A stretch of DNA of 62,877 nucleotides. Origin: a candidate division WOR-3 bacterium (lineage in GTDB: Bacteria; Hydrothermota; Hydrothermia; B15-G9; WFZT01). Position 1 is the stretch's first letter. Every line of letters begins with the position of its first letter. Made by a program: the position numbers and the translations under genes. The notes beneath the pieces are model-generated. The model ran no database searches and had not been told where the DNA came from. It was given only the letters and a program-made list of their open reading frames with translations. Shown here piece after piece: positions 11,438-18,741 of this stretch. Where the stretch lies: positions 1-62,877 of the forward strand of contig JALUEE010000004.1 in the NCBI GenBank assembly GCA_027053075.1. The letters are read 5' to 3'.

Positions 11438-12114
11438 GCTTATCTGAGGACCTTATCAAAGAAAATCAAATAACCTGGAAGAGCCTTTTCACTCATCCCT
11501 TCGTGAGAGAGTTAGGCGAGGGGAGTCTGCCTGTAGAAAAGTACCTGTTTTTCATGAAAGAGGATTACTTTTACCTGAAGGAGTACTCGAGGGTGCTTGC
11601 CATTGCCTCAGCCAAGGCACCGGATAAGGATTTGCAGACGTTTTTTGCAGAATTCCTGCATTCAACCCTGACCTTTGAAATGGAGCTACACCGCAGAACA
11701 TGCGAGTCCCTCGGCATCTCAAGAAATGAGCTTGAGATGCATCAGCCCACGGTGCTGACACTCTCCTACACGAATTTTCTCATTAAAACTGCCTACGAAG
11801 GTGATATTGTGGAAATACTCGCTTCGCTTTTTCCCTGTGAATACAGCTACTGGGAGATCGCAAAAAAGCTGAAGCAATCAGGGCTTCCAGAAAAAGAGAT
11901 TTACAGAGATTGGATTCTTACTTACTCCTCAGAGGAGTTTGGTGGCCTTGCCCGGAAGCTTAAGAGTTTTCTTGACCGCTTTAGTGACTCGGTTAGTGGT
12001 AAGAAGTTTTCCAGATTGAATAAGGTCTTCAGGGAGAGTTTAAGGTTTGAACTTTATTTCTGGGAGAATGCCTACAGAGAGGGATTGATAAAGGACCTGT
12101 TTGAGAAGAGATGA
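11434..12114 (+). CDS. tenA: Thiaminase II (TenA)
   Basis: [25 protein letters not shown] with catalytic Cys, ELYFWE; TTG start. Confidence 0.88.
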
Positions 12115-13052
12115 AAATCGTTATCATCGGCGGCGGAATCGCTGGAATAACCCTCGCTTATCTTTTACGCAACCATGATGTTACCGTGATTGAAAAGGAC
12201 TTTGTGGGTAGTGGAGAGACAGGCTACTCCACAGGAGTTTTCCCTATTGAAGAGGGTATCGAAGTGACCGACGATGGTGCCCACCTCCACTCTTCCCAAA
12301 AGTCGAAGACTTTCCAAGAGGCTAACCAGCCCCTCGAATTTTACCGTGCAGTGGAAGAATTTACTTTGAATTATTTCAAACCCGTGATTTTCGACCATAG
12401 AGATCTCTTAAATGGCTCGAGTGGCAAAAGTGTCTATGTGGATGGCTATAACTTTTGTTACTACACATCCATTGTTCTCGAGAAAAATGGGATGAATTTT
12501 GAGGTTATGAATGAGGCATTGAAGTTGATCGAGGAAAACGGCAGGGTGGTGAAGGTTGTGAGTAAGAGGGGTGAGTTTGCAGGTGATGTATTCATTGTAG
12601 CAGCCGGTGCATCAACACCTTTCATTACCAGGGCAGATGGGACCAGATTTTCCTGGATCAGGTCACTTTTATTGAAGCCCCACAGGCCTTTTGAGCCCCT
12701 GGTTCTCTACGATGAGGATTTTACCATAAAGCCAGAGGGTGAGAATAGAATTATCATCAGAGAAAACAGAGGCATTGAGGTTAATTTGAATGGAGATATT
12801 ACCAATAAAACCCGGGGTGTGGATGAGGGATTTTACGAAAAGGTTTTTGAGTATCTTGAGAGAAGAGAAAGTTCATTTCTGGATTCGGATGTAGAAAGGG
12901 GATGGGCAACTATTTGCACGGAAACCACGGAGCCTGTAAAAAGACTAAAGTACAATCTTTACGCATTTTTTGGTTTTGGCTGCAGAGGCTTTGGACTTAT
13001 TCCCATGCTGGCAAAAAATTTAAAGGAGGAGATAGAAAATGATAGACGATAA
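12111..13052 (+). CDS. FAD-dependent oxidoreductase (DAO-like, divergent)
   Basis: IIGGGIAG Rossmann motif, IVAAGA, GFGCRGFGLIP C-terminal motif. Confidence 0.75.
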   Translation: MKIVIIGGGIAGITLAYLLRNHDVTVIEKDFVGSGETGYSTGVFPIEEGIEVTDDGAHLHSSQKSKTFQEANQPLEFYRAVEEFTLNYFKPVIFDHRDLLNGSSGKSVYVDGYNFCYYTSIVLEKNGMNFEVMNEALKLIEENGRVVKVVSKRGEFAGDVFIVAAGASTPFITRADGTRFSWIRSLLLKPHRPFEPLVLYDEDFTIKPEGENRIIIRENRGIEVNLNGDITNKTRGVDEGFYEKVFEYLERRESSFLDSDVERGWATICTETTEPVKRLKYNLYAFFGFGCRGFGLIPMLAKNLKEEIENDRR

Positions 13053-13485
13053 GTTCTTTGACCTTGAGCTCTACGGGATTTATAAAGCAGTCAACGAGAA
13101 AATAGGTGAGGAAACATGGGGAATCGTCTGGAGATCAGGTGAAATCGTGCTTGATGAAATCTGGAACGAGATAAACCCCGATAATTCAACCGATGTTTTC
13201 GAGGTTCTCAAGAATCTCGGTGATTATTTAGGAAGAGTCGGTTACGTTGACTACATAAAGGTGGAAAAATTATCTGACACCCGTGTGAAATACACCATGG
13301 GCAAACCCGTAATACTCCCGGGTGCCGAGAGGTTGATAAAAGAAGGCATGGTTCCTCCTCATATCTCAACCTCTCTAATGTTTGCTGCTTTAAAAAAGTT
13401 AGGATACAGGGCAGAAATGGTGGGAGAGCCCGAATTTTTACCGGGCGATATTGCGGTTGAAATCTGGGAAATCAAGCCTATTTAA
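13039..13485 (+). CDS. Hypothetical protein (possibly V4R-like)
   Basis: 148-aa ORF with AGGAGG RBS overlapping the upstream stop; fold guess only. Confidence 0.6.
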   Translation: MIDDKFFDLELYGIYKAVNEKIGEETWGIVWRSGEIVLDEIWNEINPDNSTDVFEVLKNLGDYLGRVGYVDYIKVEKLSDTRVKYTMGKPVILPGAERLIKEGMVPPHISTSLMFAALKKLGYRAEMVGEPEFLPGDIAVEIWEIKPI

Positions 13486-13590
13486 GATTGAATGGAATAG
13501 AATGTAGAAGAAGTTATATACTTGACAATTCATAATTTAACAGCCAAGTTTAAATTGAAATGGGAAATATAAGTTTGGGGAGGGATAAAA

Positions 13591-14895
13591 ATGACAGCTG
13601 AAATTGCAATAATGAATAAAGAAGCGGTTGCATTGGCAGCAGATAGTGCAGTAACAATGGTAGGTCCAAGTGGTGAAAAAGTATTTACGTCTGCAAATAA
13701 ACTTTTTACCCTCAGTAAATTTCATCCTGTAGGTATAATGATTTACGGAAATGCATTATTTATGAACATGCCATGGGAAACGTTGATTAAAATTTATAGG
13801 GATAATTTGGGATCTAAATCTTTTGCTACAGTGAAGGAGTACGCTGATGATTTTTTAGATTTTTTATGTTCCGATGAAATTCATTCTGAAGAAGCCCAAA
13901 GCATTTATGTAGAAAGGACTATATATTCATATCTTAATTTTTTAAAAGGCCTTATTAAGAAAACAGTAGCGGATGAGTTGGAAAAGAAAGAAAAAATGTC
14001 TGAGGATGAAATTAAAAAAATATTAAAAGATATATTGCAGAGACAATATAAAATATGGGAAAATGCTGAGAATTCACCAAATATAGACAATACTGAAGAA
14101 TTTCATAAGGATGTATTAGACAAACATAAAAAGTATATGGACTTGGCTATAAGTAATGTTTTGGAAAAACTACCTTTTTCCAATACTGATAGAAAGAAAT
14201 TGCGGAATATTTTAGCTTTCTTATTTTATAAAATTCCAAGGGATATGAGATATTCTGGTGCTTCTGGAATAGTAATTGCTGGTTTCGGAGAAAAAGAAAT
14301 TTTTCCTTCAATAGTTTCTTATGAATTGTATGGTGTATGGGGAAGAGTTTTGAAGTATAAGGTTGAATTAGAAACAAAAATAGATTTTAATACTGAGGCT
14401 GTTATTATCCCCTTTGCTCAGAAAGATATGGTGTATTTATTTATGGAGGGAGTTCATAAAGATTATTTATTAATAGAAGAGAGTTATCTTCGTGGATTTT
14501 TGGAGAGGTTTTTAGACTCAATTGTTGGAAGCATCAATGAAGAAATAAGAGTATTTAGTAAGATGAAAAGAATGAAAACAAAAATAATTGATTCCATATT
14601 GGAGGAATTCGGAAAGAATTTAATAGAGTACAGAAAAAGAAATTTTAGTGATCCTATCATGAATATTGTTGCAATTCTACCAAAATTGGAATTAGCTATG
14701 ATGGCCGAAGCATTAATTAATTTAACTTCACTGAAAAGGAAGTGGAGCACAGAACGTGAAACAGTTGGAGGTCCCATTGATGTCGCTTTGATTAGTAAAG
14801 GCGATGGCTTTGTATGGATAAAGCGGAAGCACTACTTTAAACCAGAGTTAAATCCTCATTTTTTTAAAAAATATTTTAAGGAGGAGAAACAATGA
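13591..14895 (+). CDS. Proteasome-beta/Ntn-hydrolase-like protein with large insertions
   Basis: After Met removal Thr1, AAD17S and Lys36; C-terminal ETVGGPIDVALISK; AT-rich codon usage. Confidence 0.7.
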   Translation: MTAEIAIMNKEAVALAADSAVTMVGPSGEKVFTSANKLFTLSKFHPVGIMIYGNALFMNMPWETLIKIYRDNLGSKSFATVKEYADDFLDFLCSDEIHSEEAQSIYVERTIYSYLNFLKGLIKKTVADELEKKEKMSEDEIKKILKDILQRQYKIWENAENSPNIDNTEEFHKDVLDKHKKYMDLAISNVLEKLPFSNTDRKKLRNILAFLFYKIPRDMRYSGASGIVIAGFGEKEIFPSIVSYELYGVWGRVLKYKVELETKIDFNTEAVIIPFAQKDMVYLFMEGVHKDYLLIEESYLRGFLERFLDSIVGSINEEIRVFSKMKRMKTKIIDSILEEFGKNLIEYRKRNFSDPIMNIVAILPKLELAMMAEALINLTSLKRKWSTERETVGGPIDVALISKGDGFVWIKRKHYFKPELNPHFFKKYFKEEKQ

Positions 14896-15059
14896 AGAAA
14901 CGATATATTAAAACATTAAGAGATTTTGAAAAACAATACCTACCAAAATCTTTCAGTGAAAATGAGAGGAAACACACTAATCCCAAGGAGATAGGGAGTC
15001 TATGGGCAAAAGACACTATGGATAAGTTGAGGAAAACCCTAAAAATTTTTAAAAGTTAA
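14892..15059 (+). CDS. 55-aa hypothetical protein (not in ORF track)
   Basis: ATGA overlap with upstream stop, AAGGAGGAG RBS; MKKRYIKTLRDFEKQYLPKSFSENERKHTNPKEIGSLWAKDTMDKLRKTLKIFKS. Confidence 0.75.
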   Translation: MKKRYIKTLRDFEKQYLPKSFSENERKHTNPKEIGSLWAKDTMDKLRKTLKIFKS

Positions 15060-15074
15060 ATGAATTAGTATTTT

Positions 15075-17853: not shown

Positions 17854-18741
17854 ATGGAAGAGATTTTGAAAGTTATTGAGAAAGTGAAGGAAAGAGCTGA
17901 GAAATTCAGGGATACACTTTCTCACAATGAGTTTGCAACCAGATATGCGCTTATTGATCCATTATTAAGAGCACTTGGATGGGATACTGAAGACCCTTCA
18001 AAGGTGGTGCCAGAGCTGTCAACTAATCAGGGAACCCCAGATTATGCCCTTTATTGGGAAGGTAAACCTATTGCAATGCTCGAGGCAAAATCACTGGGTA
18101 CAAATCTCGAAAAGTTTATAGACATTGGTTTTAAATATTGCTGGAAAAATAGAGTGGGTTATTTTGTGATAACCAATGGAGATAGGTGGGCACTGTTTGA
18201 TATTAGCAAGATGGGAGGAGAAAAGGTTTTTGACGTTTCAATATTGAGTGACCCACCGGGTAGGGTTGCAAGGAGACTGCTTGCTCTATGGTATCCCGCA
18301 GTTCCAGAAATTGAGGGAATGCCGGAACCGTTAATAAAAACTAACGAAACCCAATCGGATAAAAGAATCGAGGAAATAAAATCTAAAGAGAAGTTTACGG
18401 ATTTGTTGAAACAAAATCTAAAATATAAGTCACCGCCTATAAAAATTATTTTACCTAACGGAGAAGTTATAGAGAATCCCCATCATTGGATAAAAATAAT
18501 CAAGTATTTTGCTGAAAAATTAGACAAAAGATTTTTACCTCTGTTTTATCCTGGAAGTACAAGTAACTACGTAATAAATTTTAAGCCAGTACATCCAGAT
18601 GGAGGTAAATTCTATAATCCTGAAAAAGTAGGGGATGTGTGGATAGAAAAATCATGGAATAGTAACCAAATAGTGAAAATTAGCGCTCATATTTTCAAAC
18701 TTCTTGGCTTCAGTCCCGATGACGTGCTGATTGAGTGGTAA
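17854..18741 (+). CDS. Type I restriction HsdR N-terminal-like nuclease domain protein
   Basis: NEFATRYALIDPLLRALGWD, PDYAL, LEAK, ITNGDRW. Confidence 0.75.
   Translation: MEEILKVIEKVKERAEKFRDTLSHNEFATRYALIDPLLRALGWDTEDPSKVVPELSTNQGTPDYALYWEGKPIAMLEAKSLGTNLEKFIDIGFKYCWKNRVGYFVITNGDRWALFDISKMGGEKVFDVSILSDPPGRVARRLLALWYPAVPEIEGMPEPLIKTNETQSDKRIEEIKSKEKFTDLLKQNLKYKSPPIKIILPNGEVIENPHHWIKIIKYFAEKLDKRFLPLFYPGSTSNYVINFKPVHPDGGKFYNPEKVGDVWIEKSWNSNQIVKISAHIFKLLGFSPDDVLIEW

Follow-up and report, generated by a model that had tools for sequence, protein, structure and literature searches.

We describe a two-gene module, real and widespread, that consists of a proteasome-beta-type threonine enzyme and a small, translationally coupled partner, and that lies in an AT-rich island of the 62,877-nt stretch of DNA analysed here (the window). 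The enzyme matches a family of proteasome relatives catalogued earlier as PMI-4, and small ORFs comparable to the 55-aa partner follow nearly every copy of its gene. With a probability of about 45%, the mobile pair is a toxin-antitoxin-like phage-defence system in which a threonine protease is held by a small inhibitor.

An AT-rich insertion behind a housekeeping run

The features of the region are as follows.

13039 to 13485, + strand: 148-aa protein at the end of the housekeeping run, present in 6/6 genus genomes, without a Pfam or NCBIfam family
13486 to 15074, no strand: AT-rich inserted segment, GC 0.307, site empty in congener G037
13578 to 13584, + strand: Shine-Dalgarno-like GGGAGGG of the enzyme gene, from the sequence
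13591 to 14895, + strand: PMI-4-type proteasome-beta/Ntn enzyme, 434 aa, with Thr2, Asp18 and Lys37 (Met numbering), helical insertions at about 95-222 and 288-362, and a conserved C-terminal helix
14877 to 14884, + strand: strong ribosome-binding site TAAGGAGG of the partner, within the final codons of the upstream enzyme gene
14892 to 15059, + strand: basic 55-aa partner, predicted three-helix, with the motif S-x-x-EF-x3-[YF][FL]P ... G-x-x-LA-x3-L-x-x-I common to its conserved family

The GC content of 0.307 at 13486-15074 compares with 0.453 and 0.434 in the 5-kb flanks and 0.436 in the window. Only one of 613 same-length sliding windows is equally low and it covers the same island, which is the most AT-rich stretch of the window. 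TenA and DAO-family genes lie to the left, where the 148-aa orphan and genes that we take from their sequences to be purH-, rtcA- and glyA-like are also found; a convergent GT4 glycosyltransferase gene lies to the right. Thus, GC content, ORFs and flanks all agree with the first-pass annotation, which had described an AT-rich two-gene island between a housekeeping operon and a convergent glycosyltransferase. Neither terminal repeats nor a tRNA-type site or integrase were detected at the island, and a sigma-70 promoter search of the + strand gave no match.

The enzyme-partner pair is a recent insertion. In congener G037, whose 148-aa protein is 99% identical, the 148-aa gene directly abuts the glycosyltransferase gene, and this empty site supports the horizontal acquisition proposed from the sequence. 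G038 has 77 bp between the two genes, G039 has a different gene order, and the contig of G035 stops there. At the same site, G036 (L189 649-1389) carries what we take from motifs to be a 115-aa nucleotidyltransferase and a HEPN-like gene broken into two pieces, so that the site is a cargo swap slot within the genus. Run X2, which belongs to a second study, has contigs that span both genes with an identity of about 97-98%; they also show a loose end at 13484 that looks like the empty site. The enzyme is found in none of the five congeners (82-96% complete). Among 272 genomes of the phylum, six have an enzyme match at E<=0.001, and the match is full-length and strong only in this genome and G094. 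A scan of genome contigs returned one locus.

The DAO-family gene (12111-13052, + strand) encodes 313 aa here, 319 aa in G037 and 286-294 aa in three other congeners. A possible second inserted defence gene lies 2.8 kb away from the island, at 17854-18741 (+ strand). It encodes 295 aa with a Pfam match to a restriction-type domain, HSDR_N (E 1.8e-10), has weak matches to type IIG in PADLOC, and is low in GC in its 3' part.

A predicted proteasome-beta core with two large insertions

The 434-aa protein starts with M-T, carries A15-A16-D17 and K36 after Met removal, and has ETVGGPIDVALI at 390-401, all as first noted. Its predicted structure (pLDDT 84) has the Ntn beta-sandwich core of proteasome beta, which is the best fold match of the model (Z 15.5, rmsd 3.5, 185 residues aligned), followed by Anbu (Z 14.8), HslV (11.8), BPH (11.6) and connectase (8.9); Foldseek agrees. 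A profile alignment places T1, D17 and K36 on T1, E17 and K33 of Thermoplasma beta, and V-G-G on S169-G-G. T2, D18 and K37 are present in all 101 full-length cluster representatives, selected by a filter that demanded T or S at position 2. Predicted fold and invariant Thr1/Asp17/Lys36 thus both bear out the proposed proteasome-beta/Ntn-like enzyme.

With 185 residues aligning to proteasome beta, about 200 residues of the protein are insertion, which agrees with the earlier estimate of about half. In the model, the first insertion follows helices 62-73 and 81-92 and forms four helices within residues 100-210, and the second comprises helices 290-313 and 319-362 between helices 279-286 and 365-385. 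At the S3/S4 position there is only a loop of 5-7 residues (25-31), and the protein ends with a short helix (418-428). Mean conservation among the 101 representatives reaches 0.66 and 0.74 in the two terminal parts of the core, versus 0.31-0.32 in the insertions.

By sequence register, the likely equivalent of the oxyanion-hole Gly47 is Gly53, present here and in 69/101 representatives. The same register puts Val392 (101/101) at the position of proteasome Ser169, probably Gln277 (97/101) at that of Ser129, and a variable residue beside E390 (96/101) at that of Asp166, so that the second triad of the proteasome looks altered. In the proteasome, Ser129 and Asp166 keep the Thr1 amino group protonated and D166N favours its nucleophilicity, according to the part of Huber et al. 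(PMC4792962) that treats this triad. Since these positions appear changed here, the chemistry of the enzyme may differ from plain proteolysis, and its efficient hydrolysis is not assured.

The enzyme matches a catalogued family, PMI-4

Neither the enzyme nor the 55-aa protein has a match in Pfam, NCBIfam or PADLOC (PADLOC 2.0: no family at E up to 1). Relatives of the enzyme make up 7956 of 7999 scored candidates, and 5991 clusters at 50% identity are related to it as well. Apart from one Proteasome cluster at 0.89, a search of the ESM Atlas with homologue P0033 returned unnamed clusters only, and the two BFVD matches at E<=0.001 include no characterised system. Among 7991 longer candidates there were no fusions, which is weak evidence; apparent fusions in L013, L067 and L082 are overlapping separate genes.

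In their catalogue of 22 proteasome relatives, Fuchs, Alva and Lupas (2021, PMC8665760) named PMI as "Proteasome homolog with Multiple Insertions". In the passages of the paper that bear on this enzyme, PMI-3 and PMI-4 share insertions after H1/H2 and between H3/H4, a long S3/S4 insertion marks PMI-5/6, and PMI-4 is the largest of the 22 groups and, unlike PMI-3, a large, broad and phage-occurring family (their Table 1). To judge by these passages, our enzyme matches PMI-4: in both, the proteasome-like core carries Thr1/Asp17/Lys33 and has no propeptide, one long insertion follows H1/H2 and another separates H3 from H4, a long S3/S4 insertion is lacking, and the very many members are widely spread, phages included. 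The distinction from PMI-3 rests on these described features and not on the representatives HDY66466.1 (PMI-4) and OGZ26396.1 (PMI-3), which were absent from the 20 clusters looked up.

The same passages report neither a function nor genomic contexts suggestive of one, and in the absence of gene context the authors had no clue to function. In contrast to their account, which as cited here gives PMI-4 without gene context, co-occurrence or function, we find a near-universal coupled partner gene and sites of defence and prophage cargo. What is known is the enzyme family; the partner pairing and defence-type context are not in the cited parts of PMC8665760. The first-pass view that this is not a characterised system stands insofar as no characterised system matches, but the enzyme family had already been catalogued computationally. 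Searches of the openly accessible literature yielded no paper testing the family. The main texts of defence-discovery preprints contain none of the words proteasome, Ntn, protease and peptidase, although their supplements could list a member by accession.

With proteasome beta, HslV, Anbu and BPH the enzyme has the predicted Ntn fold and first catalytic triad in common, but it is twice their size, its second triad is apparently altered, and its insertions should interfere with the assembly of rings. Genes for an alpha subunit, for HslU or of the Anbu operon were not seen beside the enzyme in 26 loci. HslV is a compact subunit with hslU as neighbour, whereas this enzyme has 434 aa and no HslU-type match among 148 neighbours of the 26 loci. 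Anbu is a subunit of about 240 aa with a long C-terminal coiled coil in place of the short helix seen here. Its operon includes transglutaminase and ATP-grasp genes, neither of which occurs among the neighbours scanned in the 26 loci. In common with connectase (DUF2121; PMC7980362), it is a predicted Ntn enzyme that has no propeptide and may act on a single specific partner. However, connectase has no H1/H2 but a two-helix insertion at S3/S4, whereas our enzyme keeps H1/H2, lacks the two-helix S3/S4 lid and has its partner, without KDPGA, encoded next door.

A small coupled ORF follows nearly every copy of the enzyme gene

The 55-aa ORF at 14892-15059 overlaps the enzyme gene by ATGA and has TAAGGAGG 7 nt ahead of its ATG; coupled ORF, overlap and strong ribosome-binding site are all as first described. 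We compared 169 loci (128 clusters at 85% identity), comprising the best 80 of 571 metagenome matches, 80 of 92 viral matches and loci from earlier searches. As the best 80 of each list were taken, this sample leans to close relatives. In 117 of the 122 non-redundant loci with at least 250 nt downstream, our own locus excluded, an ORF of 30-85 aa starts at -35 to +80 behind the enzyme gene. An ORF of 45-80 aa with a ribosome-binding site was found in 101/122 loci, versus 26/272 control genes (other long ORFs of the same loci under the same rule). Among the five loci missed by the first rule, L013 and L067 have intact partners, L014 and L166 have partners with a frameshift and L072 has no clear partner; the small ORF was intact in 119/122 loci after manual check. 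Homologs thus keep the small downstream ORF, as expected, and the enzyme, which had been considered stand-alone, is instead one half of a near-obligate pair.

The partners have a median length of 59 aa and a median pI of 9.7. In 24 disjoint pairs, pN was 0.10 versus a pS of 0.36, with 161/144/339 changes by codon position; the pairs were picked at >=55% identity, a choice that lowers pN somewhat. Sequence comparison thus indicates that the partner gene is under purifying selection. A single cluster holds 74 of the 122 partners including that of this window, and the remainder form seven small clusters and 19 singletons. A profile built from 49 partners recovers 22/73 held-out partners at E<1e-7. 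Partners of distant clades have in common only position, size and a late helix, and those outside the main clade escape the profile, so that a role common to all is an assumption based on position and size. Strong profile matches occur in exactly two of the 272 phylum genomes, in both directly behind a full enzyme gene, and there is one weak match with an internal stop.

Only eight proteins were found with the partner profile in a collection of 5.8 billion (word-based search, 133 candidates), and in RefSeq the ORF is uncalled in both E. coli loci opened. Behind the E. coli prophage copy WP_000123148.1 lies an ORF of 49 aa that is not annotated. Missing gene calls may therefore explain why the partner was overlooked. 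The 49 partners share no Pfam family, and no solved relative was found. Modelled alone, the partner forms three helices (pTM 0.40). Pro18, after an aromatic pair, is invariant. An amphipathic helix exceeds shuffled sequences in 86% of one set of 74 partners and in 77% of another of 48, with a mean z of about 1, D-P is present at positions 30-31 in 13/49, and no conserved C-terminal tag motif was seen among the 49. Among broken copies we found four broken enzymes with an intact partner, one intact enzyme with a frameshifted partner (L166) and one locus with both broken, which shows no toxin-antitoxin asymmetry beyond gene length.

Direct binding of enzyme and partner is weakly predicted. The complex scores 0.51, compared with 0.00 for the best of three controls. 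The mark was attained by 116/157 solved and 2/215 mismatched pairs, with 18 solved pairs and both mismatches at 0.60 or under; unless there is prior support, passes of this kind are wrong more often than not. The runs agree in >=95% of contacts, with a partner pLDDT of >=64. Enzyme and partner distances correlate (rho 0.69, permutation maximum 0.38), which is expected from linkage and was set aside as evidence of binding.

Defence genes and prophage cargo sites

The enzyme gene has a lower GC content than its flanks in 71/73 loci. In 26 metagenome loci, 148 of 182 neighbouring ORFs were scanned without a background control, some of the loci being kin (L023/L035/L037), and 13 have a PADLOC match at E<=1e-15 beside the enzyme. 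Restriction-modification genes are found in seven loci and Hma in four, besides HEC-01, AriAB-like genes, RT UG21 and PDC-S32/S43/M11; in three of the 13 the pair lies inside or beside Hma. The other 13 loci have no PADLOC match, nor has the pair in this window a PADLOC neighbour.

In L035 (2924-9111), L023, L037 and L016, Hma loci enclose or adjoin the pair, together with HEC-01 or PDC-M11, and in L035 the pair sits on the opposite strand between HmaA and HmaB. Directly upstream of the pair in L047 (3882-5774) are two genes, one for a reverse transcriptase of the UG21 type and one for type IIG restriction.

The enzyme was also found in 13 of 50,697 phage records, seven of them Streptococcus satellites, in 10 of 72,556 plasmids and in 22 of 5426 E. 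coli genomes. In 44 viral loci (73 of 129 flanking ORFs scanned), it adjoins an endolysin in five, a CI-like repressor in five and an integrase in three (13/44). One E. coli allele (nine genomes) lies between Q and the lysis region of a prophage, and the other after the prophage repressor. In seven of 349 matched records opened for the same Q-lysis slot, KwaB (Kiwa) was present in one, and the cargo of the other six was unnamed or KAP-NTPase, STAS-like, MBL or nucleoid-associated.

Possible roles of the pair

Among the readings first offered (defence, toxin-antitoxin and protein conjugation), we infer that defence of the toxin-antitoxin type fits best. Met removal would expose Thr1 without a propeptide, so that the enzyme could act as soon as it is made, and the insertions would keep it from assembling into proteasome-like rings, by an argument found in the cited parts of Fuchs et al. 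(PMC8665760). A Thr1 enzyme without propeptide and probably without a closed ring would need another brake. This could be supplied by the partner, which would bind the enzyme and fits an inhibitor because it is coupled, strongly translated, selected, poorly folded and in predicted contact. Upon infection, the partner would be lost or displaced, and the released enzyme would cut a specific protein, likely picked by the insertions, and stop the phage. The sites occupied, i.e., defence neighbourhoods and prophage cargo slots, fit such a defence role.

Type II toxin-antitoxin systems with the toxin first likewise consist of two coupled genes with a small, poorly folded second protein, are mobile and occur in prophages and defence islands. 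This gene order is known from HigBA and HicAB. A conserved two-gene unit with a small partner is found here as well, and at this site the pair replaces the presumed nucleotidyltransferase/HEPN-like pair of G036; however, the enzyme has no known toxin domain of such systems. We know of no toxin-antitoxin or defence system with a proteasome-type threonine enzyme as effector. Still more tentatively, the pair could represent a widespread, previously undescribed toxin-antitoxin-like anti-phage class, a proteasome-beta-type threonine effector gated by a partner of ~60 residues missed by gene callers, and thereby the first PMI function and the first proteasome-fold effector in prokaryotic immunity. 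Should the pair prove defensive, bacterial immunity would count the proteasome fold among its effectors, and with it a natural peptide that inhibits a threonine protease. A hidden, selected partner behind nearly every copy opens PMI-4 function to direct experiment, with natural copies available in E. coli.

The same defence and prophage context would also suit an enzyme that senses infection and cuts or needs the partner as its dedicated substrate or activator, thereby setting free a basic, amphipathic helix that is toxic, or making the active enzyme complete. Invariant Pro18 behind the aromatic pair could be a recognition site, the amphipathic helix exceeds shuffles, and the broken copies do not favour an antitoxin; yet the amphipathy signal is modest, the size, charge and lack of an own fold suit antitoxins at least as well, and an intact partner beside a broken enzyme in four loci fits either role. 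We regard this version of defence as unlikely. It appears more improbable still that the enzyme is a connectase-like transpeptidase, which would take part of the partner as a tag and ligate it, via a Thr1-amide intermediate, to a protein of phage or host. In favour are the Thr1-N-protonating positions Ser129/Asp166 of the proteasome (PMC4792962), which look replaced here, and the D-P in 13/49 partners, given that connectase cleaves D-P and works through an amide intermediate (PMC7980362). However, D-P is a common helix cap and absent from 36/49 partners, a conserved C-terminal tag motif was not found among them, and connectase is the weakest proteasome-family match, its hallmarks being absent from the enzyme. 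If the enzyme does ligate, it would be a second connectase-like enzyme, with its own substrate encoded alongside.

Alternatively, the pair might have no part in defence and be a selfish addiction module, or an accessory peptidase with an assembly chaperone or structural subunit as partner, passively carried by mobile DNA. The flanks are ordinary in half of the 26 metagenome loci and in this window, low GC and patchy spread show mobility only, and PADLOC, Pfam and NCBIfam give no match. Against a role outside defence, the pair has arrived repeatedly and independently in cargo slots that lysogens express, in satellites, in restriction islands and at Hma loci, and exchanges with Kiwa at one E. 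coli slot; we consider such a role, too, improbable. The broken copies do not separate these readings from the inhibitor-held protease.

Divergent relatives

The relative encoded by L004 (1111-3128) is degenerate, with 386 aa and no GG-P-I-D motif at the C-terminus; a replication-initiator-like gene lies on one side of it and a 273-aa orphan on the other. L005 (859-2280) and L006 encode PMI-like relatives of 273 aa with a Cys-rich insertion early in the fold, each followed by a 69-aa ORF and then by a gene that, from its motif, is presumably Fic/Doc-like. Because of this next gene, the 69-aa ORFs were dropped as candidate partners and are more likely its antitoxin; the two relatives are probably another PMI subfamily beside a toxin-antitoxin pair.
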